A DNA stretch of 64,000 bases, taken from IMG/VR virus record IMGVR_UViG_3300018412_000011; one strand, 5' to 3'. Each line of letters opens with the position of its first letter. The stretch's first letter is position 1. Of this stretch, positions 4,932 through 40,014 are shown in pieces. The DNA is from an uncultured virus (IMG/VR IMGVR_UViG_3300018412_000011). Taxonomy: Duplodnaviria; Heunggongvirae; Uroviricota; Caudoviricetes. Made by a program: the position numbers and the translations under genes. Under the pieces are notes generated by a model. The model did no database searches, was not told where the DNA came from, and worked only from the letters and a program-made list of their open reading frames with translations.

Positions 4932-6608
4932 TTAAGGAGCTTTTTCATATAATATTTCTAAATCTTTTTCAATTATTTCTTCTAAAGTATGTGGCTTAAA
5001 GTCGGTACAAACAAACTTATGGTCAATTGTGCATTTAAAAAGAGCTCCATTATCTAATTCAACTTCAAAAAGTTCTTTTTCTCCTACCTCAAATACATCA
5101 ACAACTTCGTCTTCTACAACCACCCCATCTTTTATGGAATTTAAATAGATTTTTGGAAAATTACATTTTTCCCCTTGCTCAAAATTATTCCAACAATGAG
5201 CTTTAAAAAAATCTTTTTCTAGATTTTCTAAAGAATAGACTTTCCCATCAACTGACTTAACGCAAGTATCGCCCGACAAACATTTATTGAAACCATAACC
5301 TCCAAAGAATTTGATTTGTTCAAAAATTTCTTTAGCAATTTGAGGATTAACGTTATTGTGCTTCTTACAACCTTCAATAAAATCTTTTTCTTGCGCGTCT
5401 AAAAGATCTTGTTTCTTTTTACCAACTGCTTTCCTTAAAGTATCCGATTGACCCTTAGTAAATCCCGCAAGTTCTTGAGCAACTTTCATGAAATCTTCTT
5501 GATATACAATTAAAGAGTATGTTTTTTTCAACAACTCTCCCATTTTTGGATGTAAAGGCTTAATTGGTTTACGTCCATGTTTATAGTCAGCATAAAGTTC
5601 TGGAACCCCCGCGCCTAAAGGTCCTGGTCTAAACAAAGCGGTTGCTGCAACCATATCTCCAAAAGAATCGACCCTAATATCTCTTAACAATCGAGAAATA
5701 CCATATGATTCGAATTGAAACACCCCTTTGTTTTCTGCTCCTTTTATTTTACCATTAAGTAAATCAAAAACTAATTGATCTATTGGTTCTAAAGTGTTAA
5801 TATCTATCTCTTTTCCATGGCGACTTTTGATCATTTCAACTGTTCTTGAAATAACAGAAAGAGTTTTTAAAGCTAAACAATCAAACTTCAACAAACCTAA
5901 TTCTTCTACTTCTTCTTTGTCGAATTGAGTGCAAATCACATCTTTGCGACATCTTAAAGGAACATGTTTTACAATTGGATCTTTGCAAGCCACAATACCA
6001 GCTGCATGAGAACCCGCAGAAGATATAGTCCCTTCAATATGTTGAGCTGCTCGATATAAAGCAGGATATCTTTGCATAGATTGTTTAAATTCAAAAGAAT
6101 TTTCATATGCTTTTTCAATAGTCATGTCAGGATCTTCTGGAATTTGCTTTGATATTTCATCTGCAATGTTCAAAGAATTTTTGGTAATAAATTTTTTACC
6201 AGTTCTAACTCCTTTTTGGTAATTTTCCCAATCATTACCTAAATCCAAAGCTTTAGCGGCATAACGAATAACCGCTTTAGCTTTAAATGAATTATATGTG
6301 CCAATTTGGGCACAATGATCAGCCCCATATTTTCTCCTTATGTAATCAAATATTTCATCTCTACGGAAATAATCAAAATCAATATCAACGTCAGGTGGAG
6401 AAATACGTTCTGGATTCAAAAACCTCTCAAATAAAAGATCATATTTAATTGGATCGACATTTGTAATCCCCAAACAATACAAGGCAAGAGAACCCGCGCC
6501 TGAATTATGAACTGATAAACCTTCTATATTATAAGCATGTATTTTATCTACATGCAAATCATAAACTTTTCCTTTATATTCTCTTTTTGATATTTTTTTT
6601 ATTTTCAT
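4932..6608 (-). CDS. dnaE: DNA polymerase III alpha, piece 2: C-intein 1, catalytic core, N-intein 2
   Basis: Starts MKIKKISKREYKGKVYDLHV...VHN|SGAGS; catalytic PDVDIDF, HAAG and GLLKFD; ends GFNK|CLSGDT...CTIDHKF (N-intein). Confidence 0.95.
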   Translation of the reverse strand: MKIKKISKREYKGKVYDLHVDKIHAYNIEGLSVHNSGAGSLALYCLGITNVDPIKYDLLFERFLNPERISPPDVDIDFDYFRRDEIFDYIRRKYGADHCAQIGTYNSFKAKAVIRYAAKALDLGNDWENYQKGVRTGKKFITKNSLNIADEISKQIPEDPDMTIEKAYENSFEFKQSMQRYPALYRAAQHIEGTISSAGSHAAGIVACKDPIVKHVPLRCRKDVICTQFDKEEVEELGLLKFDCLALKTLSVISRTVEMIKSRHGKEIDINTLEPIDQLVFDLLNGKIKGAENKGVFQFESYGISRLLRDIRVDSFGDMVAATALFRPGPLGAGVPELYADYKHGRKPIKPLHPKMGELLKKTYSLIVYQEDFMKVAQELAGFTKGQSDTLRKAVGKKKQDLLDAQEKDFIEGCKKHNNVNPQIAKEIFEQIKFFGGYGFNKCLSGDTCVKSVDGKVYSLENLEKDFFKAHCWNNFEQGEKCNFPKIYLNSIKDGVVVEDEVVDVFEVGEKELFEVELDNGALFKCTIDHKFVCTDFKPHTLEEIIEKDLEILYEKAP

Positions 6609-7566
6609 TTTTTTGTTTTTTTGTTTTCAATCTAATGAAGAAATTTTGAACTGCTTTGTTGTCGATAAATCTTATGTCTTTAAGGTAAGGGGTTACTTGC
6701 CTCCGAACATAAACATCTGATCGGACTAGAATACCTCTATTTTTCAACTCTTTTAAGGAGAAAACGATGTATTTTTCTCCGAATATTTTTTTTGCTGCAT
6801 TAAGTTTTTCATTATAATTATGAAAAACTTTATTTCCCTTTATTTCCACAAGATACGAATTATTTTTAGTTTTAATTTCAAAATCTGGATAATAATTTCT
6901 AGTTTTATTTGCTTTGTCTTTGTATGGTATTTTCTTATCGCTTCGCTTTATTTCAAGAATTTTTGAATTTTTAAAACAATATATTATATATAATAATTCC
7001 CAACTACTATGAAAATGAATTCCTCTTATGCTACCCGAAACAAACTGTTTCGAATTTCTTTTTTCAAAATATAAAGGATCTTCTTTAACCAATCGTTCGT
7101 GGGCTTTTCGTTGTTTTTTAATTACATCTTCTCTATTCTGAGCAATAAGTTGAGCCTTTGAATTATTCTCTTTCCACTCGTCAGAACTAGTTGCATATTT
7201 TAAGGCGCATTTTGAACATATTGGTTTCACACCACATATACTTCTTCTTCTCATTTTATTAAATTCCATCAAATCTTCTTCATCACATTCTTGACATGTG
7301 AATTTTATCAACTTTTTTGTCTTGAGAATATCTAAATAAGGTAAAATATCTTTATATTCCCAATATTCATTATTCCATTTTCCTTGTAAAGATTCTGGAA
7401 CGTCTTTTTTCAAACCATACCTCCCCCCCTTACTATGATTTTTTTTATAGCATTCTTTACATATCGGAACTCCACTTTTTACCTTCCTTCTTTTAAGCCC
7501 TCCTGGTTGTAATTTGAATTCTTTGCCACACTCGATACACTTATATTTTTTTGTTTTTCCTCTCAT
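6574..7566 (-). CDS. Free-standing Zn-ribbon plus TnsA-like PD-(D/E)XK endonuclease between split-intein halves
   Basis: Several CxxC pairs; HSSWEL...YYPDF...LVEIKG nuclease motif. Confidence 0.78.
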   Translation of the reverse strand: MRGKTKKYKCIECGKEFKLQPGGLKRRKVKSGVPICKECYKKNHSKGGRYGLKKDVPESLQGKWNNEYWEYKDILPYLDILKTKKLIKFTCQECDEEDLMEFNKMRRRSICGVKPICSKCALKYATSSDEWKENNSKAQLIAQNREDVIKKQRKAHERLVKEDPLYFEKRNSKQFVSGSIRGIHFHSSWELLYIIYCFKNSKILEIKRSDKKIPYKDKANKTRNYYPDFEIKTKNNSYLVEIKGNKVFHNYNEKLNAAKKIFGEKYIVFSLKELKNRGILVRSDVYVRRQVTPYLKDIRFIDNKAVQNFFIRLKTKKQKNENKKNIKKRI

Positions 7567-7633
7567 GTTTTAGTCCTTTGTCTCGTTTATTCAACGACAG
7601 AACTAAAACTTCCTCTACTAGATCCTAAAAAAA

Positions 7634-9064
7634 TTAAATTTCTAATTCTTCTATCTCATAAATATCATCATTTTCGGAAAGATCTTGTGCTTCCACCCAA
7701 ACTAATTCTCCATCTCGAACTACATGAATTTTGTGATTGTTTGTGCAAGAAATCACCTTGCCATCTTCAAGTTCTATGTCAAAAATTTCTTCTTCAACTT
7801 CATATTCAAACTTATTTAGAACTTCATGATATTGCCCGTCATAAGACAAAACAAATTCCCCCTTTCTAATTAATTGTATTTTTTTCAATTCATTTTTTGT
7901 CTGCACCAAGCTTTCTGGAACAAAACAACCACGACCAGGCCCGACCGCTATGTTTTGTTCGTGAGCATAACGAATCATATCCCAAAGAATTAAAAAGTAC
8001 TTAATGTATCCACATTTCTCAATTGCTTTTAATTCAAATCTAATTCTTTCTTTGTATTCTTGCTTGCCTTTGAAACCCAATTTAACAAAACCATCTTTAA
8101 TTAAAGCAATAAGATAGTCCATTTCTGTCTCAAATCCTTCTGGTAATTCAAAAGACGGGAGTAAATCGGCAGATTCTTCCATCAATGGTTTTGACGAAAT
8201 CTTATCAACAATTTCTTTTGTATTTTCCAAAAGCTCAGGAACTTTCTTATATTTATTCGCAATTTCATCTTTGCTTTTGATATAAAACTCATCACTATCT
8301 AAAGTAAATCGTTTTGGATCTTTAATATGATTGTGGGTTTGCATTGCTAAAAGAATATCATGGTACTCTGCATCTTCTTTTTTTGCATAATGACAATCAT
8401 TAGTCGCAATTGCTTTAATATTATGTTTTTTAGAGAGTTTAAAAAGAACTTTTGCCACATCTTCTTCTCTTTTCTTTTGCTCTTCATTATTAAAATATTC
8501 ATGAGCCATAATTTCAATATAATAATCATCTTTAAAAAGATCTTTATATTTTAAAATAACTTGTTCCGCAACATCAACATGACCTTGATAAATGTTCATT
8601 GAAACTTCGCTTGAAATGCAACCAGAAGTACAAATCAATCCTTCATGATATTTTTGCAACAAACCAAAATCAATCCTAGGCTTTTTATATTTGCCTTCAA
8701 TCTCAGCAATAGAAGAAAGAGTAAACAAATTTTCTAACCCCTTTCTGTTTTTAGCAATGATAGTGATATGGTAAATAGGCATATTTTTATCCCTAGATGT
8801 ATGATCTTCAGAGATGTAAAATTCAGAACCCATAATGGGCTTAATGCCTTTTTTAAAACATTCTTTCTGGAAACGGAACAAGCCAGCACAAGTTCCATGG
8901 TCTGTTAATGCTAGAGCATCATATCCATTGTCAACAGCGCCTTGAACCATTTGTTCGATTGAACCAAGCCCATCTAATAAACTGTAGTGAGAGTGGTTAT
9001 GCAAATGGGCAAAATAAATTCCCTTTGATTCTTGTGATTTTTTTTCTTCGCAATTATTACACAT
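7634..9064 (-). CDS. dnaE: DNA polymerase III alpha, piece 1: PHP domain plus N-intein 1
   Basis: HLHNHSHYSLLDG, TDHG and TNDCHY PHP motifs; ends GPGRG|CFVPES...CTNNHKI (N-intein). Confidence 0.95.
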   Translation of the reverse strand: MCNNCEEKKSQESKGIYFAHLHNHSHYSLLDGLGSIEQMVQGAVDNGYDALALTDHGTCAGLFRFQKECFKKGIKPIMGSEFYISEDHTSRDKNMPIYHITIIAKNRKGLENLFTLSSIAEIEGKYKKPRIDFGLLQKYHEGLICTSGCISSEVSMNIYQGHVDVAEQVILKYKDLFKDDYYIEIMAHEYFNNEEQKKREEDVAKVLFKLSKKHNIKAIATNDCHYAKKEDAEYHDILLAMQTHNHIKDPKRFTLDSDEFYIKSKDEIANKYKKVPELLENTKEIVDKISSKPLMEESADLLPSFELPEGFETEMDYLIALIKDGFVKLGFKGKQEYKERIRFELKAIEKCGYIKYFLILWDMIRYAHEQNIAVGPGRGCFVPESLVQTKNELKKIQLIRKGEFVLSYDGQYHEVLNKFEYEVEEEIFDIELEDGKVISCTNNHKIHVVRDGELVWVEAQDLSENDDIYEIEELEI

Positions 9065-10448: not shown

Positions 10449-10795
10449 GGGGATGATTGGAATCGATTCATATCGAAATAGCACTTTTGCATGGAGAATT
10501 CCATAACTTCTATAAAATATGGATAAAACTAAACGACAAAAGTTTAGAAATAGCTGCTTAAACAAAGCAGTTCGGGAAATAAGTAGATTATCTTAGTATC
10601 TTAAAATACCGTAAAATAACAAGATGGATTAAGAAAGTCCTTCTTTCTTTGACTTCTAGCAAAGACTAGATGCATTCTGATAGAAGAATCAGACAGAGTT
10701 TGTTTATGTCTCTGCTAACAAATAAACTAACCTTGTGAATGATAAAGTGTGGTTTCATAGAGAAGAAGGGAGTTCGAATCTCCCCATCTCCACCA
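10449..10795 (+). ncRNA. ssrA: tmRNA
   Basis: Acceptor stem GGGGATG/CATCTCC-ACCA with G3:U70, T-arm GGGAG-TTCGAAT-CTCCC, tag frame ...LNDKSLEIAA-stop at 10529-10561. Confidence 0.95.
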
Positions 10796-13944: not shown

Positions 13945-14020
13945 TGGTGCTTGTGGTGGGATTCGAACCCACACTCTCAGAAGGTTAGAATTTCTGGCTC
14001 TACCATTGAGCTATACAAGC
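13945..14020 (-). tRNA. tRNA with CUA anticodon (amber suppressor candidate)
   Basis: 76-nt cloverleaf GCTTGTATAGCTCAATGGTAGAGC-CAGAAA-TTCTAAC-CTTCTG...GTGGGTTCGAATCCCAC...ACCA. The stem pairs only with CTA at 34-36; there are A:C mismatches at 7:66 and 31:39. Confidence 0.75.
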
Positions 14021-29277: not shown

Positions 29278-30039
29278 CTATAAAGAACTTAATTTGTAAT
29301 CTCTTACTTTGTCGCCTTCTTTTGGGTGCTTATAAATTTTTTGCCTTTGATATTTATTGATACGCCTTTCATCTTTACCCAAATTATTGCCTTTACTAAA
29401 TTTGAAACCAAAATTAGTATTTTCAGAATTTTTAACTTTTAATATTGAAAGATTTTTGATTGTTTTTTTAATTTCAAACCCAAAAAACAAACTGCATTTA
29501 AATTTAAGAATTAAATCAACTTTACCTTTATTATCAAATAAAAAAGAATTGCCTTGTTTCCCATCTCTATTGGGAACAACTTCAATGCAATTATTAGAAT
29601 ATTTAATATTGCCTATCCCTAATTTTTTATGTTCCCCACACTCAATCCCGATCTGAACAGACGAATCGTGAATTATTAATGAATTTTCATTCGTTGAGGT
29701 TCTACTTTCTATATAGCTCCCTTGATATTCTATAGGCAAAAATGAAAAAATGCCTACATAAGTATTAAAATTATTTTCTTTTTCTCTAGTTACGTTTAAA
29801 TCCACCCAAATGAACTTCGAGAGAATAAAGGGAGACAATATCAACATAAAAAAAACGATGAAAAAATTTATAACTGGACTGATAATTTCCAAGAATTCAA
29901 TTGTCCATATACAAGGCCCTAAAAGTAAATTAAGTAAGAAAAGAAAAATTAACACATTGGCCAAAAAACTTATTCTACTTAAATAAAACATGAATAAAGC
30001 ATACATGAACTGTTCATGCTTGTTAAAAAAAATTAACAA
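29278..30039 (-). CDS. Membrane protein inside the tRNA array
   Basis: Two hydrophobic N-terminal segments; start uncertain. Confidence 0.55.
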   Translation of the reverse strand: MLIFFNKHEQFMYALFMFYLSRISFLANVLIFLFLLNLLLGPCIWTIEFLEIISPVINFFIVFFMLILSPFILSKFIWVDLNVTREKENNFNTYVGIFSFLPIEYQGSYIESRTSTNENSLIIHDSSVQIGIECGEHKKLGIGNIKYSNNCIEVVPNRDGKQGNSFLFDNKGKVDLILKFKCSLFFGFEIKKTIKNLSILKVKNSENTNFGFKFSKGNNLGKDERRINKYQRQKIYKHPKEGDKVRDYKLSSL

Positions 30040-30080
30040 TAAAAGCGCTTGTTGAAAAATTGTTTATGAAAAACGATTTG

Positions 30081-30151
30081 TGTCAAAAGTATGACTCGAA
30101 CTTACATCTTCCCCATACTAAGGGAAACTTCTGCCATTGAAATATTTGGGC
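30081..30151 (-). pseudogene. Degenerate tRNA-Thr(AGT)
   Basis: Anticodon arm TTCCC-TTAGTAT-GGGGA and TTCGAG loop; acceptor and T stems mismatched, no CCA. Confidence 0.55.
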
Positions 30152-30201
30152 CTATTTGTGAAATTTCGTGCAAGATATTTTGGGCATTATTTATAGTAAA
30201 A

Positions 30202-30276
30202 TGGTACTCGGTGAGAGAATCGAACTCCCATCATCGGTATGTAACACCGAGGTCTTAGCCGTTGGACAAACCGAGC
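30202..30276 (-). tRNA. tRNA-Val(TAC)
   Basis: Cloverleaf; anticodon arm TCGGT-GTTACAT-ACCGA; CCA end. Confidence 0.8.
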
Positions 30277-30323
30277 ATAATTAACCAAAACTTACTTTAT
30301 GCTTTTACGCCCACCAAATAAAA

Positions 30324-30400
30324 TGGTGGTCGATACTGGACTTGAACCAGTTACCCCTTCAATGTCAATGAAGTGCTCTAGCCAAATGAGCTAATCGACC
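30324..30400 (-). tRNA. tRNA-Val(GAC)
   Basis: Canonical cloverleaf; CTTCA-TTGACAT-TGAAG; ACCA. Confidence 0.92.
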
Positions 30401-30406
30401 ATAAAA

Positions 30407-30509
30407 TGGAACATGAGGTGGGCTATTTACCCTACTTCTCCGCCTTAACCTGGGAACCAAACGTGTTTCAACGCTCATTTCGAGCTTCAAAAATAAAAGC
30501 TTCTCATGC
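30407..30509 (-). ncRNA. tRNA-like RNA with enlarged centre, anticodon undetermined
   Basis: Acceptor GCATGAG/CTCATGT-TCCA, D-like GCTT/AAGC hairpin, atypical T-arm. Confidence 0.45.
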
Positions 30510-30642
30510 ATAAAATGTGCAAGCGGTAACTGTAAACTATCTCAACTCTTAAACCGACAGACTGTTATCTTTGTTCCAGACAAAGTTGCAGTAATTCAGA
30601 AAGCATCAATGATTTAATACTCAATCCCTTACTTGCGGAAAT

Positions 30643-30746
30643 TGGCGGGCCTGCTCTCACCCGAGTCAAACCACTTAAGTCTCTGTAATGGTGGAAGAGG
30701 GTCACATCCCCTATACACAAAACTTCAATGACAGGCAGGTTTCGCC
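30643..30746 (-). ncRNA. Structured small RNA candidate in the tRNA array
   Basis: Ends pair (GGCG..CCTGC / GCAGG..CGCC) and the sequence finishes in CCA. Confidence 0.4.
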
Positions 30747-30751
30747 TAAAT

Positions 30752-30859
30752 TGGTGAATGGGGCAAGATTCGAACTTGCGGCGACTTCTTAAACTCGTTT
30801 TTCGGACCTTTCCATCCATCATAGTTTAAGTACGGCTCTACCAACTGAGCTACACATTC
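30752..30859 (-). tRNA. tRNA-like gene with a greatly extended anticodon arm (identity undetermined)
   Basis: Normal acceptor, D (GCTCAGTTGGTAGAGC) and T arms with ACCA; about 32 extra nt around a CTTAAAC/GTTTAAG stem. Confidence 0.65.
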
Positions 30860-30866
30860 AAAAAAT

Positions 30867-30964
30867 TGGTGGATCGACTGGGGTTCGAACCCAGGACTCC
30901 AAGATTAATCATTTGCGCTATCTTACGCTGAAGTCTCGTACTCTACCAACTGAGTTACCGATCC
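30867..30964 (-). tRNA. tRNA-Lys(TTT)-like gene with a 22-nt insertion in the anticodon loop
   Basis: Removing 30909-30930 gives a 76-nt cloverleaf with CGAGA-CTTTTAA-TCTTG. Confidence 0.75.
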
Positions 30965-30967
30965 ATT

Positions 30968-31390
30968 TTAAATTTCGTAATCTTTTGCCCATCTAACCCC
31001 TATAGCTTGATTATTTTTAGAAGCCTCGACTCTTAATGTGGCTTGCTTAAAACCAACTTTGTCAACAGGAACAATATAGCATTTATTTAAGTCGGGACTA
31101 TATATTCCAAAAAGGTCAATTTGTCCTCTATAACTTTGTTTTTCATGCTTTGTAGAAGATCCTTCCGGAACATGATAAGTGGAACTACAACAAGGAAAAA
31201 CAAGAACTCCTTTTATAAGATTAGCTGTTTTTATTTGAACTCTTTCAAGACCATTGCCTCTGTCAATAACACAATCATATCTTTCACAATCTCCTAATAC
31301 ATCAGCTACAACCCATTCATTTTCTAGGCATTTCGCCATAAAATAAATTTCGCTAATTGTTCCCTTTCTTTTGGGTGCTTTCTTTTTCAT
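30968..31390 (-). CDS. PD-(D/E)XK endonuclease of the group I intron-associated (I-Ssp6803I-like) type
   Basis: GTISE, RYDCVID...RVQIKT and YRGQIDLFGIY motifs; lies between two tRNA-Lys genes. Confidence 0.8.
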   Translation of the reverse strand: MKKKAPKRKGTISEIYFMAKCLENEWVVADVLGDCERYDCVIDRGNGLERVQIKTANLIKGVLVFPCCSSTYHVPEGSSTKHEKQSYRGQIDLFGIYSPDLNKCYIVPVDKVGFKQATLRVEASKNNQAIGVRWAKDYEI

Positions 31391-31470
31391 TTAGTTCTCC
31401 TTGTTAAACCATGAGAATGGTTCTCTTTTGGTTTAAGGAATTCTTTCAAAAAATACAAAAAATTACAAAA

Positions 31471-31557
31471 TGGTGGGCGCAGAGGGAGTCGAACCCCCGT
31501 TGAGATTTTATTCTCGCGGCTTAAAAGGCCGATGCATAACCATTCTGCCATACACCC
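31471..31557 (-). tRNA. tRNA-Lys(TTT) with a long variable arm
   Basis: 87-nt cloverleaf; CGGC-CTTTTAA-GCCG; variable stem GAGA..TCTC; ACCA. Confidence 0.8.
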
Positions 31558-31615
31558 AATTTTAAAAAATTTCAAATTTCAAAGAACAATCAATTTTTGA
31601 GAAAAATTGTAAAGC

Positions 31616-31646
31616 AAAAAACCCGACCTTTCCAAGTCGGGTTTTG
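31616..31646 (-). terminator. Attenuator terminator of the Lys/Val/Thr tRNA operon
   Basis: AAAACCCGACTT-GGAA-AGGTCGGGTTTTTT; competing segment AGTTGGGTTTTG at 31666-31677. Confidence 0.85.
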
Positions 31647-31677
31647 AAAAACTATGTTGTTTAGACAAAACCCAACT

Positions 31678-31734
31678 TTAAGTAGTTTTAACTACCTTGA
31701 AAGTTTTTATGGTTTTGACTTTAACTAAGCTCAT
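31678..31734 (-). CDS. Leader peptide MSLVKVKTIKTFKVVKTT (Val/Lys/Thr sensor)
   Basis: 13 of 17 post-Met codons are Val, Lys or Thr; starts 9 nt after the -10 box. Confidence 0.85.
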   Translation of the reverse strand: MSLVKVKTIKTFKVVKTT

Positions 31735-31743
31735 GATGTAAAC

Positions 31744-31771
31744 AATATACTCTTTTTTCGAATTTATGCAA
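31744..31771 (-). promoter_or_regulatory. Promoter of the Lys/Val/Thr tRNA operon
   Basis: TTGCAT-N16-TATATT. Confidence 0.75.
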
Positions 31772-32846
31772 GACAAAAGTTCAATTATTTTTGTCCTCTA
31801 TCCAGAAGGAATCATTTTTTAAATGAGATGTAGGGACATTAAGACTAGTTGAAAAAACTTTTTCTTTTCCACATTTAAAACACTTTTCTTTTATTCTATG
31901 GACTCTTATTCCAGAACCTAGACCATAAGCCAACACAGAAAGACCTTCTGAAGTTTTATGAAATTTACATTTACATCTTTTGAATGGATTTTTCATTTTG
32001 TATCTAAAAAAATTTTCAAATTTATAAAAAGCTCCAAAAAACAACATGTTCCCAAATTTTAGGCTTTTCTGCCTTATTCCATTTGTCTGCCTCTACGTCT
32101 AAAATATACCAATTGACTTCTTCTATAACCCCTTCTCCAACCCTAACCTACTCCATAAAAATATCTCTAGCTTCTTCTAAAGAGGGGAACCAAGATCTTA
32201 CTCGACAACTATCTATCTTCCCCTCTCGTTTTTCGCTTTTCAGGATCAGAAGCAATAGTTGTTATAACATAAATTTCTTCTTTCATAACAAATTTAAAAT
32301 TCTTTGAGTTTCTCGATCATAATCTTCTATACTTTTTATGTTATCATTTTTGCGATGATTGTCAAACAGTTTTTTAAAATCTTTTTCTGATTCTCGGATA
32401 TGATCAAGTAATTCGGGTTTTTCTGAAACCTCATCTAAAGAAACGCCATACCAATCTTTAAAAATTTCATCAAGTTTTTTGTTAAATGCCATTGGAATCT
32501 CCTACAATTTTAATCTCGCAATCTACTTTGTCAATACGCATTTGACAATAACAAACCCATACATTTCTTTCTTCACATATTTTTAAAAGATATGCATTGC
32601 ATTCTGTTGTTGCCACTCCTGTTTTTTCTTCATAATTTAAGTTTTCAATTTTTGCTTTGCAATATCCAAAAAAATGAGAAACGAGAATTTCGTCACCTTT
32701 TTGTAAATCATTTAATCCACAAGAATGACTTTCAGAAAATGGCTTTAAATCGTAGTCTTTGTCCTCAAGAAGATTTAACAATTCTTGACTCAATGGCCAA
32801 ACGGGAGTGCCATAATGTTCCTTTATTGTCCAATTTAATTTACTCA

Positions 32847-33248
32847 TTATTTTAAAGAAAGTAAATATCTCAACTTTTCAAGTTGAGTAAGAATGTCATC
32901 TCTAATATTGATAATCCCCTTAGAACTATTCAATGCTGTTAATCCTTCAAATTTATAAATAGTTGCTTCCACAAAACTCACAATATCTTTCTCATTAATG
33001 TCTAAAAGAGAATCAATTTTACAATTCTTTTCCCCAAATGTAATCCTATGTGATCCTTGTAAATTTTCAATTAATTCATCAAAAAGGTCATCTAATCCCC
33101 CATAAATTTCTTCAAAAGCTTTGTGCTGGCTATATGATGTCGTTTGCCAATGCCATAATTTTAACTGACTTTGAACCCAAAGAATTAATTGTATATATTC
33201 TTGAATCAATAACATATGCTTTTTTGTAAAATTTGAATTGCAATCCAT
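32847..33248 (-). CDS. Ferritin/Dps-like four-helix protein
   Basis: HWQT.SYSQHKAF...D.LIE and LRYLLSLK motifs. Confidence 0.7.
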   Translation of the reverse strand: MDCNSNFTKKHMLLIQEYIQLILWVQSQLKLWHWQTTSYSQHKAFEEIYGGLDDLFDELIENLQGSHRITFGEKNCKIDSLLDINEKDIVSFVEATIYKFEGLTALNSSKGIINIRDDILTQLEKLRYLLSLK

Positions 33249-33913
33249 TTTTCTTTCCTTTTTATATTTTATAAATTGTATTAAAGATTATTCCTCAAGT
33301 CAAGAATTATTTTTGATAACTTTGAGTTTCTCCTCCAAACGTTTCAATCTCAACTTCATCATCAAATTCAACACTTTTTCCTCCAATTTGCTTCCATCGA
33401 TTTTGTTCTAACGAATGGTCATACCCCTTCATTTGAGGATGAACCTCTGGAGTGTCATCTAATTGAGGGTTTTGAGTAGGTGCATTTATAGCTTTTGAAG
33501 CAGAAGGGGTTTTACTCTTTTCTTCCCAAGCTCGATATACATTGGACATAGAATATTCTTCTATTGTTTTGTCTCTTGCATCAGCTTCTTCATCTGTGAA
33601 CTTTTGTTGATCAAAAAAAGCTTTTTGCAAATTACTTATCCCATTGGGTTCTGTCATTATGGTATCCTCTTTAATTCATTTTTCTCTTCCTCATCCCAAC
33701 AGATGCCCTCTAAAGCATCCAAAATTTCATCGGCATCTGCACCTGTTTCTTCTTCTAAATGATTCACAAGTCCTTTTAATGCTTTTTTAAAGGCTAAGTC
33801 TTGATTAGAGATATATTCAGTATGAAATTCCCTTGTGGTTTTTGGAATATATGAAGATTTTTGAGTTCTAATATGCTTTGTCAAAGGAGCGTCGGGATTT
33901 AATTTTAGATTAT

Positions 33914-34726
33914 TCATAATAGTTCCTTATTTATATGTTTTAATGAATTATCAAAATTAGCATAAAAACGAAAAGGGTCAATCAAAGACAATCCACTCAT
34001 TTCTCCACTATTAAGTTCAATGACTATCCACTCTCCATTTTCTTTTTCCCCAACATCAACAACAAAAAAATTGGTTTTCTCTTTTACAATATTAGAAATT
34101 TTATTGACCAAATCAAAACATTCCACAGGAGGTTGTTCGTAAGGTTGACAATCAGGTTCGTCTGCCCAATAATAACCATAATCAATGATTTGATCTTTTA
34201 AGAGAAAAAACCTCCATTCATTCGTCACAGGCAAACCATTCATTCCATCCATAAATTTTCTTAATTTAACAAATTCTCTTACAACCACTCCTTGATCTCT
34301 GACTAAAGAATCATCCATTAATCTTGATACAATTCGAGTGACATCATTTTTGCTAGGAGCATACATTTGATGTTTCCATTGAAATTTTCTAGAATTCGTT
34401 CTTCCTTTCACTATATATTCACCCTCTGGAAGATTTGCCCATTGAAACCATGTTTGAGGAGTAAATTCTTTAATGTCCTCATAATAATCAAAATTAGCAA
34501 TATACTGATGTTGCCTATAACTATTAACTAACCTTGAATTATTTAAAGCCAACTCTTCTCCCAATTCTTTTCTGAATGGAAGAACTGAATATCTCCCAAA
34601 AACAAGATGGTTCGAAGGAATTTCACTTCTAAATCTATAAACAGGAAACGACAAAGTTTCTTTGGCAATTTCATATTCTTCTTCAAAATCTTCAGAAGCT
34701 CTAAATAAAAAACAAATGTTTTGCAT
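33914..34726 (-). CDS. ATP-grasp domain protein
   Basis: VVVREFV, NEWRFF and FFVVDVG...WIVIELN motifs. Confidence 0.8.
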   Translation of the reverse strand: MQNICFLFRASEDFEEEYEIAKETLSFPVYRFRSEIPSNHLVFGRYSVLPFRKELGEELALNNSRLVNSYRQHQYIANFDYYEDIKEFTPQTWFQWANLPEGEYIVKGRTNSRKFQWKHQMYAPSKNDVTRIVSRLMDDSLVRDQGVVVREFVKLRKFMDGMNGLPVTNEWRFFLLKDQIIDYGYYWADEPDCQPYEQPPVECFDLVNKISNIVKEKTNFFVVDVGEKENGEWIVIELNSGEMSGLSLIDPFRFYANFDNSLKHINKELL

Positions 34727-34748
34727 AAACCATTATACGACAAAGACA

Positions 34749-35520
34749 AAAAAAATGAAGCAATATTTTTCAGTATTGCTTCAGGTATAGGATGAGATTA
34801 CTCCGTTAACAAGGGTCCATTTGCAAACTTATTTTTTATTTGCGTATCCACTGTTTTACCAGTTGACCCTCACATTCGCCTTTTTAAATTGGAGGCTGTT
34901 CCAATCATTATAGATTCTTCTGCAAAACTTTCGACTTCCGAAACTAGCTAGGTTCCAAAAATCTAGTTATTCTACAAACTCTTAAGCCTTGCGAGCTTAA
35001 AAGCCCCTGGAGATCCAGGCGTTGAATGCTTACCTCTACGATGGGACGGGATTATTGCTTTTGAAGTTTATTTGGATTTAAACCAAGTCTTCATGACTTA
35101 TATTACTCAATTGTGAAATCCGCACCCGCCCATCTGTTTCGCTTCTTTCGAAACAAAATGCAGAACGAATCTCTATCCTCGTCTTGCGTGACGTTTGGAC
35201 GCTTTTCTAGGATTCCCCCTGACCTTTTAACGTCAGTAATCTTCCTATCAAGTTGCATGCAGCCATTAAAACGCAAATAATTTTGACCGTATGCTTACCC
35301 TTTGACCAACTCTTCTTTCTCTATCTAGATTACCATTCGGCATTTCCAGAGGAACTTTCGTTCTTTCGATACTCGAAAAGAATCTCCCCTTGTGGAAAGA
35401 ATTCTAGTCTCGGCTTGCATCAGTGACCTTTTCCAAGGCGATCTACGTCTTGAGTGCGTAGACCTTTTTTATATGTTGCCATATATCTATCTTCCCCGAA
35501 GGAGGATGTGATACCACCCT
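34749..35520 (-). ncRNA. Large (~770 nt) structured ncRNA, GOLLD/ROOL-like candidate
   Basis: ORF-free, GC-richer, many GNRA-capped hairpins; own promoter (35583-35610), boxB/boxA-like leader (35535-35565) and terminator (34749-34782). Confidence 0.7.
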
Positions 35521-35582
35521 TAAATCTATTTTTTTAGAGAACAATGTTGGGTTTTTATGTCCAACTTAAAATTTGTACGAAC

Positions 35583-35610
35583 AATATACCTGGTTTTTCA
35601 ATTTATGCAA
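35583..35610 (-). promoter_or_regulatory. Promoter of the large ncRNA
   Basis: TTGCAT-N16-TATATT, identical boxes to two tRNA-operon promoters. Confidence 0.75.
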
Positions 35611-36464
35611 GAACTTTTTCATTTTCTTTCGACTCAAAATTTTCATTCGAAAATTAGACCATCCAACTTTTCAAAAGCAATGTGGTTTTTCTTGAAGCTT
35701 TAATACTAATTTGTATGAAGGGATATTCTATCATAATTAATTTTCAACTAGATCAGCATATATCTTTTCTAAAGCACAATCCACTTTCTCAAGTTGATTA
35801 TAATATTGAGTTTTATCTTCCCCTGATTGCAAATTAGCATAAGCAATATTGTCTACAATTTTATTCCTGTGCTCTTCTAAAACCTTTAATTCTTCTATGC
35901 AATTTTTATTCTTTTCTCTTTTTGAATGTTCAATTTTGCTTTTCAAAAGAGGCACAGATTTTACATCCCCTTTTTCCGAAACTATAGTTAACAAAATGTC
36001 TCCCCATTCAGTTTCCAAAATAGCAATTGCCTCACCCTTAATCTATTCTAGGGGTTCGCAACCATATCTTATTACTTCTTCATCGTTTTTGAAGCTAACA
36101 ATTTTACCCATAAGATATTCTTCATTTATTATATTTTTAACAATCATTTTGTTTTCCTTCCTTAATACTCCGAACAAGCCAAATAGCGAGGTTTAAAATC
36201 ATAAATATATAACCATTCCTCACATGTATGGGTAATCTTTTTGCCTTCAAAATCTATGGTTAAATTGTCTTTATCATTCAAGGTTGTAAGAAAAAGATCT
36301 ACTTCTTCTTCCCGTTCTTTAATTTCTTCTTCCCGTTCTTTAATGACGAGATCCCTTGCCGTTTCTGCATTAAGGGCTATTACCCAATGATTTACTAAAT
36401 GTTGTTCTGTCGCTCTAAACACTTTCATAATTTGAATACTACCATAAATGCAGTTCATGTAAAG

Positions 36465-37591: not shown

Positions 37592-37683
37592 TGGTAGGCA
37601 GAGTGGGACTCGAACCCACACTTCGTACACGATTAGTCAGAGTTTATAAGACTCCCGGCTTCACCAAATTTGCCTATCTGCCT
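37592..37683 (-). tRNA. tRNA-Ile(TAT) with a long variable arm
   Basis: Acceptor AGGCAGA/TCTGCCT-ACCA; GGAGT-CTTATAA-ACTCT; 19-nt variable region. Confidence 0.8.
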
Positions 37684-37694
37684 ATTTTAAAAAC

Positions 37695-37720
37695 AAAAAA
37701 CCAACCCTTTCGAGTTGGCT
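37695..37720 (-). terminator. Attenuator terminator of the tRNA-Ile gene
   Basis: GCCAACTC-GAAA-GGGTTGGTTTTTT; competing GGGTTGG at 37762-37768 inside the leader. Confidence 0.85.
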
Positions 37721-37747
37721 TTTAATGCATGGAAAAAAGAAAAACAG

Positions 37748-37816
37748 TTAACACATGGAATCCAACCCAAATAAAATTGAGTTAGCTATTCGTATGATGT
37801 TAATGATTTGCTTCAT
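37748..37816 (-). CDS. Leader peptide MKQIINIIRIANSILFGLDSMC (Ile sensor)
   Basis: Six Ile codons (ATC ATT ATC ATA ATA ATT); ATG 6 nt after TTGACT-N16-TATATT (37823-37850). Confidence 0.82.
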   Translation of the reverse strand: MKQIINIIRIANSILFGLDSMC

Positions 37817-37846
37817 GTCTACAATATACGCTTAAAAAGAAATAAG

Positions 37847-38347
37847 TCAATGATTTTCTCGTTCAATTTTTAATGTTTCTTTTATTTTGGGAATATCGAC
37901 CTCTTGTAATCCATGTTCTTCATTGATTAAGATATGATGCTTTTTCAATTTCTCATCTGAAGCATCTGGATCATCATCCAAAATCACAAAATTGGTTACT
38001 TCAGGATGTTCATCGAACCATGAATGAATTTCATAATATCTTGGAATATACTCTGAAAAATGAAAATATCTCCCTTTATATCCTTTAACCCGAATACAAG
38101 GAGTTTTGTCCCAAATATCAAAAACAGTTTTAACTGCCTTATATCCATCTTCTAAGTTTCTCCAAGTTGATGACAAAACAATTTTTGCATCAAATTCTTT
38201 TTGAATGTCTTTGACTATTTTTATACTTCCAGGATCAAAACCACTAATGGATCTATACACGGAATGATCTTTGGTTTTATCAAACAAATTGTCTAAATAA
38301 ATCCAATTATTAATTACTCCATCAATATCTAGAAATATAACTTTCAT
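37847..38347 (-). CDS. HAD-family phosphatase (RNA-repair-associated type)
   Basis: MKVIFLDIDGV, IVLSSTWR and FVILDDD motifs. Confidence 0.85.
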   Translation of the reverse strand: MKVIFLDIDGVINNWIYLDNLFDKTKDHSVYRSISGFDPGSIKIVKDIQKEFDAKIVLSSTWRNLEDGYKAVKTVFDIWDKTPCIRVKGYKGRYFHFSEYIPRYYEIHSWFDEHPEVTNFVILDDDPDASDEKLKKHHILINEEHGLQEVDIPKIKETLKIERENH

Positions 38348-39473: not shown

Positions 39474-39553
39474 TGGAGTGCTAGACAGGAATCGAACCTG
39501 CTTTTACGTCTAGATTGGAAATCTAGGGACTCACCTTTCGCCTCAACTAGCAC
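39474..39553 (-). tRNA. tRNA-Gly(TCC)
   Basis: Acceptor GTGCTAG/CTAGCAC, U73, CTAGA-TTTCCAA-TCTAG; atypical D-arm. Confidence 0.8.
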
Positions 39554-39574
39554 ATGTTTTATTATACAGTAAAA

Positions 39575-39666
39575 TGGTGGGGCCAGACGGGATCGAACCG
39601 ACGACCTTCTGAATGCATCATTGTCTTTCGACGAATCAGACGCTCTCCCAGCTGAGCTAATCCCCC
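39575..39666 (-). tRNA. tRNA-Ala-like gene with a 16-nt anticodon-loop insertion; acceptor stem partly mismatched
   Basis: GGGGGATTAGCTCAGCTGGGAGAGCG start; removing 39618-39633 gives TCTGA-TTTGCAT-TCAGA; lacks G3:U70. Confidence 0.65.
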
Positions 39667-39700
39667 ATTAGGATTGGTATTTACATTATACAATAAAAAT

Positions 39701-39779
39701 TGGTGGAAGTGACGGGTCTCGAACCCGCAAAACTCCGCATTGCAAGTGCGGTGCTTTACCGTACATAAGCTTCACCCCC
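39701..39779 (-). tRNA. tRNA-Ala(TGC)
   Basis: G3:U70, CCGCA-CTTGCAA-TGCGG, ACCA. Confidence 0.88.
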
Positions 39780-39836
39780 ATTATAATATTTCAAATTTTT
39801 TAAAGAACAATTAATTTTTGAGAAAAATCATAAAAC

Positions 39837-39867
39837 AAAAAACCCAATCTTTAGCGAGATTGGGTTT
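39837..39867 (-). terminator. Attenuator terminator of the Ala/Gly tRNA operon
   Basis: AAACCCAATCT-CGCTAA-AGATTGGGTTTTTT; competing GATTGGGTTT at 39886-39895 overlaps the leader stop codon. Confidence 0.88.
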
Positions 39868-39893
39868 CGGAAAAATCGACAATACAAACCCAA

Positions 39894-39971
39894 TCAGAAG
39901 GAGATACCTCCTGCCGCTGCGGCCCCGCCGTTTCCAATGTTTGTATAAATTTTTTTCAAGTTTTTAATCAT
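39894..39971 (-). CDS. Leader peptide MIKNLKKIYTNIGNGGAAAAGGISF (Gly/Ala sensor)
   Basis: GGA AAC GGC GGG GCC GCA GCG GCA GGA GGT; ATG 6 nt after TTGCAT-N16-TATATT (39978-40005). Confidence 0.88.
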   Translation of the reverse strand: MIKNLKKIYTNIGNGGAAAAGGISF

Positions 39972-40014
39972 GGAATCAATATAACGCATCTTTAACATTA
40001 TGCAAGAAAAATTT

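Follow-up and report, generated by a model that had tools for sequence, protein, structure and literature searches.

Candidate leader-peptide attenuators ahead of tRNA arrays in a freshwater phage and its relatives

tRNA arrays and the cassettes that precede them

The window analysed here, i.e., the whole stretch of 64,000 nucleotides (64 kb) from the uncultured virus IMGVR_UViG_3300018412_000011, is AT-rich (~31% G+C) and is read almost entirely from the minus strand in the standard code. Its protein-coding genes are those of a phage and include ones for an HNH endonuclease, an Hsp20, an R2K ATP-grasp protein, an RNA-repair-type HAD domain and a DnaE-type DNA polymerase that is split; the RNA genes comprise a tmRNA, 11 tRNA matches and a GOLLD RNA. 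DNA of this phage is contained in three freshwater metagenome runs, and the nearest cultured phage by DnaE is just 41% identical. The DnaE-type polymerase (4932..9064, minus strand) comes in two pieces, ORF 7634..9064 and ORF 4932..6608, and a further ORF (6574..7566) separates them. An alternative genetic code was considered and rejected, as under translation table 11 the minus-strand ORFs that reach 100 aa already total ~17,100 aa and TAG read-through adds little. A tRNA of amber suppressor type (anticodon CTA; 13945..14020, minus strand) comes immediately behind an ORF and has no cassette of the kind described below, in a window that table 11 reads well; the tmRNA gene (10449..10795) is on the plus strand, opposite to the CTA tRNA.

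Three tRNA genes or arrays in the window are each preceded by a cassette of ~200 nt, which we call A, B and C (Table 1). In cassette A, a promoter-like site downstream of an 88-aa ORF is followed by a leader ORF of 18 codons, a segment directly after its stop codon that we call region 2, an intrinsic terminator formed by regions 3 and 4, and a spacer that reaches to the first tRNA. The promoter-like site belongs to one pattern, TTGCAT/TTGACT-16-TATATTG, which occurs at four sites in the window (also at 40005, 37850 and 35610). Since the putative -10 element stands only 9 nt from the leader ATG in cassette A and 6 nt in cassettes B and C, we predict an mRNA with little or no sequence ahead of the start codon, i.e., a leaderless or almost leaderless one, and infer such a transcript start for all three window cassettes from the sequence. 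No Shine-Dalgarno sequence was found ahead of any of the three window leaders, which weighs little against an attenuator because the 4-mer core of this sequence appears before only 25 of the 62 long ORFs in the window.

Table 1. Positions of the cassettes, their parts and the tRNA genes downstream of them (window numbering)
Feature	Position	Strand	Remarks
88-aa ORF upstream of cassette A	ends at 31781	-	
Promoter-like site, cassette A	TTGCAT 31771..31766, 16 nt, TATATT 31749..31744	-	regex scan
Leader ORF A	31734..31678	-	18 codons, MSLVKVKTIKTFKVVKTT + TAA; ATG 31734..31732, TAA 31680..31678
Region 1, cassette A	31711..31719	-	GTCAAAACC, leader codons 6-8; pairs with region 2 in full-length MFE
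Region 2, cassette A	31666..31677	-	AGTTGGGTTTTG, directly after leader stop; pairs with region 1 or region 3
Intrinsic terminator A (regions 3 + 4)	31618..31645	-	12-bp stem, 4-nt loop, then T-run
Spacer, terminator A to first tRNA	31560..31612	-	conserved with cassette C (TTTTTCTCAAAAATTRATTGTTCTTT)
Array A	30080..31557	-	putatively gated by cassette A
tRNA-Lys(UUU), array A	31557..31471	-	ARAGORN + Rfam
PD-(D/E)XK ORF, array A	31390..30968	-	
Insert-bearing tRNA, array A	30964..30870	-	Lys UUU or Arg UCU
Insert-bearing tRNA, array A	30859..30755	-	unassigned; ARAGORN: Ser GGA with intron
ORF-free stretch, array A	30754..30401	-	354 nt
tRNA-Val(GAC), array A	30400..30324	-	ARAGORN + Rfam
tRNA-Val(UAC), array A	30276..30202	-	ARAGORN + Rfam
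tRNA-Thr(AGU), array A	30151..30080	-	ARAGORN + Rfam
Cassette B	37696..37850	-	
Promoter-like site, cassette B	37850..37823	-	TTGACT-16-TATATT
Leader ORF B	37816..37748	-	MKQIINIIRIANSILFGLDSMC, 6 Ile
Region 2, cassette B	about 37769..37761	-	
Terminator, cassette B	37723..37696	-	
tRNA-Ile(UAU)	37592..37683	-	putatively gated by cassette B
Cassette C	39780..40005	-	
Promoter-like site, cassette C	40005..39978	-	TTGCAT-16-TATATT
Leader ORF C	39971..39894	-	MIKNLKKIYTNIGNGGAAAAGGISF, Gly/Ala-rich
Region 2, cassette C	39896..39885	-	begins within stop codon
Terminator, cassette C	39868..39839	-	
Array C	39474..39779	-	
tRNA-Ala(UGC), array C	39779..39701	-	
tRNA-Ala, array C	39666..39578	-	16-nt anticodon-loop insert
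tRNA-Gly(UCC), array C	39553..39474	-	

Leader A is dominated by three amino acids, with 13 of the 17 residues after Met being Lys, Val or Thr (0.199 in the window proteome; binomial P 8e-7), and it ranks first for the V+K+T fraction among the window's 661 ORFs that begin with ATG and span 10-40 codons (0.76; runners-up 0.62 and 0.50). The codons GTT, GTC, GTA, AAA, AAG, ACC and ACT, which an earlier, sequence-only reading of this DNA had listed for the leader, are all present in the ORF. The same reading had named TTT (twice), GAC, TAC, AGT and GGT as the downstream anticodons; ARAGORN and Rfam agree on TTT in the first tRNA and on GAC, TAC and AGT, but the second TTT is ambiguous, ARAGORN giving Arg TCT for a tRNA (30964..30870) with an insert of 22-25 nt in its anticodon loop, and GGT was found by no tool. 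TTT is plausible for this tRNA by analogy with the insert-bearing tRNA of array C, which alignment to a tRNA-Ala of the relative G001 identifies as tRNA-Ala(UGC). The proposed match down to the codon level holds under strict wobble (13/13), yet it is uninformative: Lys, Val and Thr have 10 codons between them, and 9 of these can be decoded by the four tRNAs.

Several of the tRNA genes are unusual in build. In the three insert-bearing genes of arrays A and C, the anticodon loop or its vicinity is enlarged by 16 to ~34 nt, and two of these inserts consist of a small hairpin followed by AATGA. Both tRNA-Lys(UUU) (87 nt) and tRNA-Ile(UAU) (92 nt) have long stem-loop variable arms that are not usual for these isotypes. 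Between tRNA-Lys and the next tRNA of array A lies the ORF of a PD-(D/E)XK endonuclease (140 aa; PF11645, E 4e-26) with a strong Shine-Dalgarno sequence, which may be a mobile or homing element. The ORF-free stretch inside the same array is G+C-richer, and it gave no Rfam match and no look-alike among the fetched loci.

Cassettes B and C are paralogous to cassette A, with a common build and promoter type and with other leaders ahead of other tRNAs: an Ile-rich leader precedes tRNA-Ile and a Gly/Ala-rich leader precedes tRNAs for Ala, Ala and Gly. Cassette B is statistically weak, both in its leader (P = 0.004) and in its antiterminator pairing (see below). The spacer between terminator and first tRNA is common to cassettes A (31560..31612) and C (39780..39838), where TTTTTCTCAAAAATTRATTGTTCTTT occurs exactly at these two places only, and a similar sequence, AAAATTAATTGTTCTTTGA, stands ahead of the array in the metagenome locus L020 (~5010..5040). 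This conserved spacer may serve RNA processing, bind a protein or act as a second promoter. A contig from the runs X1-X3, equal in depth to the phage itself, links 31584..31625 to 39960..40011 around 112 other letters, combining A-like spacer and terminator letters with C-like promoter and ATG letters; it is probably a fourth paralogous cassette that lies outside the window.

Alternative folds of the cassette transcripts

The sequence-only reading had noticed that region 2 of cassette A (AGTTGGGTTTTG) can pair with the terminator's 5' arm (CAAAACCCGACT, 31646..31635). The pairing spans 12 positions, one of them G-U, and when the upstream region was shuffled 500 times with its dinucleotides preserved, no shuffle paired as well with the terminator arm. 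Among the other cassettes, such shuffles numbered 1/500 for cassette C, 2/500, 5/500 and, for cassette B, 44/500. Beyond what had been noticed earlier, region 1 (GTCAAAACC) inside the ORF offers a third pairing, with region 2, so that the transcript faces the classical three-way choice at near-equal energies (-16.7 kcal/mol for 1:2, -18.7 kcal/mol for 2:3 and -17.2 kcal/mol for 3:4, the terminator). The earlier proposal had been made to depend on an antiterminator that is competitive in folding, and by these energies the antiterminator is competitive. The 2:3 antiterminator is the MFE structure of a cassette A transcript that lacks the 3' arm of the terminator, and the MFE structure of the full-length transcript combines 1:2 with the terminator; the region folds better than 200 of 200 shuffles (z = -4.30). 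A 1:2 hairpin is part of the predicted MFE fold in all three window cassettes.

As controls for the terminators of the cassettes we took every further hairpin resembling a terminator that the coding strands of the window and of G001 (1 to 80 kb) contain. The antiterminator potential of the six cassette terminators of the window and G001 ranged from z -4.37 to -1.68 and that of the 12 control hairpins from -1.64 to +1.26, a complete separation in which each cassette terminator shows the greater potential.

The effect that a translating ribosome would have on these pairings was modelled by blocking a 28-nt footprint at each codon in turn and folding the transcript as it would be before region 4 is made. 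In cassette A, upstream sequence captured the terminator arm with a probability of 0.99 while the ribosome was at codons 2-15; once it had reached the last codon or the stop, the value was down to 0.26-0.38. This modelled behaviour fits the earlier suggestion that a ribosome reaching the stop would mask region 2 and permit termination, while one stalled before it would leave region 2 free. The same pattern was predicted in all eight cassettes, in which the terminator arm is paired upstream with the ribosome on early or middle cognate codons and this pairing drops when region 2 is covered. Two features qualify the classical picture. (i) In the ribosome-free truncated transcript at equilibrium, the antiterminator is already preferred (0.99 in cassette A), so that the default-off state of a classical attenuator would have to be kinetic. 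(ii) In three cassettes of relatives (G_NQ, G_F and L020), the leader ORF extends beyond region 2; a ribosome at the stop would therefore provide no mask there, and only a ribosome in transit would do so. No variants inside the cassettes were found in four DNA runs, which were of the same strain or covered the cassettes poorly.

Leader composition follows tRNA identity

Relatives of the phage were located via DnaE and via a 560-aa protein, and they share ~45-66% protein identity with it, which is too distant for base-pair covariation; DNA similarity to the cassette was not detectable (best E 0.025). Other routes gave fewer returns: INPHARED phages showed no match except to the tRNAs themselves; IMG/VR searches with the PD-(D/E)XK ORF, the 88-aa ORF or a DUF5856 ORF as query returned no locus; the terminator used as a pattern had no match in IMG/VR; and the conserved spacer used as a pattern had no exact match in IMG/VR or the JGI metagenomes. 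The R2K ATP-grasp neighbour is missing from five IMG/VR relatives.

We inspected 22 starts of tRNA arrays, four in the window, nine in G001 and nine in metagenome loci, leaving out locus L027, whose tRNA list repeats that of L024 at shifted positions; the Asp-Trp-Arg array of G001 runs into the end of the contig. Leader ORFs were chosen by eye as the ORF ending beside the terminator. Cassettes of leader plus terminator stand at 9 of the 22 starts, eight of them independent, and the composition of the leader matches the array in 9/9; the remaining 13 starts have no cassette, including the Ala-Gly array of G001 and locus L022, which has a promoter only. In G001, a K/T/V-rich leader (MYIKTKTVEKATVFKKTV...) in a position syntenic with cassette A precedes tRNAs for Lys, Val, Thr and Thr, the leader of G_NQ (MFFINQQNNQQNQN..., with NQQNNQQNQN) precedes Asn, Gln and Asn, and the Phe-rich leader of G_F (...IFSFFSF...) precedes Phe. 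Among the metagenome loci, L025 and its orthologue L026 have an A/G/T/V-rich leader (MKIAVTGKGTTVATVGAAASG...) ahead of Ala, Gly, Thr, Gly and Val, and L020 has a leader of K, I, T, G, A and V (MLKITGKAIKAKTTVAGVGTV...) ahead of Ala, Ile, Gly, Gly, Thr, Thr, Thr, Val, Lys and Lys.

We examined this tracking by permuting the array sets among the eight leaders: just 2 of 40,320 arrangements reached the observed match, these being the true order and a swap of two identical K/V/T sets, and all eight independent cassettes are enriched in cognate amino acids, with binomial P from 1e-8 to 1e-2 per cassette. It is also specific to the reading frame, as codons for cognate amino acids number 97 in frame and 29 and 20 in the other two frames. 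At the level of single codons the correspondence is looser: under strict wobble, 77 of the 97 cognate codons are readable by anticodons of the array and 20 are not, the latter including four of the six Ile codons ahead of tRNA-Ile(UAU).

These results bear on the possibility that the terminators simply end the upstream genes, that similar hairpins lie in tandem, and that the short ORFs are incidental, their V/K/T bias stemming from palindromic GT...AAA...AC sequence. The sequence that encodes V-V-K-T-T in cassette A does form a hairpin of its own (GGTAGTT AAAA CTACT), two similar tandem hairpins yield 2:3 complementarity automatically, and the leader has no Shine-Dalgarno sequence, all of which speak for such a view; it gives no account, however, of leaders that turn Ile-, Gly/Ala-, Asn/Gln-, Phe- or A/G/T/V-rich exactly as the arrays change (2/40,320), and it leaves both the frame specificity (97/29/20) and the separation from the 12 control terminators unexplained. 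We regard it as very unlikely and already disfavoured. A still fainter prospect is that the short ORFs encode functional micropeptides to which the terminator is unrelated. Several leaders do end in hydrophobic tails (…GLFCFV, …VVQIILLAV, …SGFSFVIV), but these coincide with region 2 and are accounted for by RNA pairing; moreover, the composition follows the tRNAs, and the orthologous K/V/T leaders showed no sequence conservation beyond composition.

Proposed attenuation of tRNA operons and its relation to known systems

We propose that the cassettes act as attenuators of transcription, ribosome-mediated and of the leader-peptide type, with every cassette gating one tRNA operon of the phage, a reading that we consider likely on the sequence evidence and for which the decisive support comes from the paralogous cassettes and the relatives, where leader composition follows tRNA identity. 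The putative sigma-70-type promoter would start the transcript at the leader ATG or within a few bases of it, and a ribosome would then translate an ORF spelled mostly in the amino acids of the downstream tRNAs. The nascent RNA could take up either of two mutually exclusive folds, 1:2 plus the 3:4 hairpin, i.e., the intrinsic terminator, at which transcription would stop, or the 2:3 antiterminator, with which RNA polymerase would read into the tRNA genes. If decoding is quick, and movement of ribosome and polymerase is kinetically coupled, the ribosome at the stop would cover region 2 and the terminator would form; if it stalls on the Lys, Val or Thr codons of leader A, it would cover region 1, leaving region 2 free for the antiterminator, and the array would be transcribed. 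The expected outcome is negative feedback, in which the phage probably produces a given tRNA set only while ribosomes are slow on the codons of that set.

What such an attenuator would sense may be the abundance of tRNAs or their charging. A variant of the proposal holds that the signal is amino-acid supply in a starving host, acting through tRNA charging, with tRNA output rising under amino-acid limitation. As in trp and his attenuation, a stalled ribosome cannot distinguish a missing from an uncharged tRNA, which makes it blind to the difference, and the tracking is stronger by amino acid (97 cognate codons) than by codon (77 readable under strict wobble), as charging would lead one to expect. 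The regulated products, however, are the exact decoders of the test codons, and because extra tRNA cannot relieve a lack of amino acid, feedback driven by charging would be without evident purpose. For these reasons we hold a charging signal to be unlikely, and think that the abundance of the tRNAs is the more natural candidate for the sensed quantity.

Multivalent attenuators are known from enterobacteria, where thrL contains Thr and Ile codons and the ilvGMEDA leader Leu, Val and Ile codons. The phage cassettes resemble both in the short ORF rich in several regulatory amino acids, the mutually exclusive 1:2, 2:3 and 3:4 hairpins, the intrinsic terminator before the regulated genes and the stop codon that adjoins region 2. 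They differ in that their targets are tRNAs instead of biosynthetic enzymes, so that the product is the very molecule that the ribosome tests, and in being phage-encoded and modular, with one cassette per array, window leaders that are apparently leaderless, and no match to an Rfam leader family. All the described leader-peptide attenuators known to us act on genes for amino-acid biosynthesis or aminoacyl-tRNA synthetases; downstream of cassette A lie tRNAs and the one PD-(D/E)XK ORF, and neither biosynthesis nor synthetase genes. Among attenuated synthetase genes, pheST is controlled by attenuation at the pheM leader. One report describes His-codon leaders ahead of hisS paralogues in Bacillus, and not ahead of tRNA genes (PMC2965389). 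These systems are like the phage cassettes in that a leader peptide attenuates a gene of the translation apparatus for the same amino acid, but there the target is a synthetase and the leader names a single amino acid, whereas here the targets are tRNA genes and a leader may name up to six.

A search of the full-text literature found no account of leader peptides or attenuation ahead of any tRNA gene, and Rfam leader families and T-box models gave no match at gathering score in the whole window or at E up to 1 in 30000..36000. T-boxes work without an ORF: uncharged tRNA is bound directly, the contacts being made by the specifier codon and by the T-box sequence. With the phage cassettes as proposed here they share a terminator/antiterminator switch that senses the state of specific tRNAs, and one might suppose that the leader RNA likewise senses tRNAs without a ribosome, its codon-like triplets pairing with anticodons; the regulated genes do belong to the translation apparatus, and the triplets of the leaders are cognate to their tRNAs. 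Against such direct sensing stand the lack of a T-box or riboswitch model match, the confinement of the cognate triplets to one frame between ATG and stop inside an ORF, and their number and dispersal, in place of one specifier, and we give it very little credence. The tRNA-gene targets, together with the absence of a match to Rfam leader or T-box models, set the phage cassettes apart from described attenuators. In all structural features that we tested, the modelled cassettes look like attenuators, which suggests a known mechanism with tRNA genes as a new kind of target.

In the usual view, phage tRNA genes are a constitutively expressed cargo, whose role is to adjust codon usage or to make good the tRNAs that the host's defences cleave. 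If ribosome-mediated attenuation is true of the cassettes, the expression of arrays would be regulated set by set via the decoding speed of the codons they serve, in a direct product-feedback loop, and a textbook mechanism would extend to a new target class and to viruses. It would also supply a sequence rule that can be searched for genome-wide, namely that leader composition equals array identities, and the cassettes would offer compact, programmable sensors of individual tRNA pools. Going further, we tentatively raise the possibility of a modular tRNA-on-demand system in a clade of large freshwater phages, in which every tRNA operon would control itself through a test strip for ribosomes, spelling out its own tRNAs; such a system might sense, per codon family, both mismatch with the host tRNA pool and attack by anticodon-nuclease defences on the tRNAs of the host, and transcribe the exact replacement set, with the version in the window coupling leaderless initiation to attenuation. 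This broader picture is a good deal less certain than attenuation itself.

Simpler arrangements of promoter and RNA gene also occur. In the Bacillus phage vB_BauM_KLEB27-3 (OM634661.1), a sigma-70-type promoter stands directly upstream of a tRNA pair, as it does in L022 and at one array of G001; unlike the cassettes, this arrangement has neither a leader ORF nor a terminator between promoter and tRNA. Within the window, the fourth TTGCAT-16-TATATT promoter (35610..35583, minus strand) lies ahead of an ORF-free stretch of ~800 nt (34756..35610), the 3' half of which (35173..34789) matches the GOLLD RNA (RF02032, 137 bits, E 3e-37, just below the gathering score of 150). A GOLLD RNA thus stands in the company of the tRNA cassettes, headed by a promoter of their kind, and a terminator-like hairpin (34783..34756) follows the GOLLD match.
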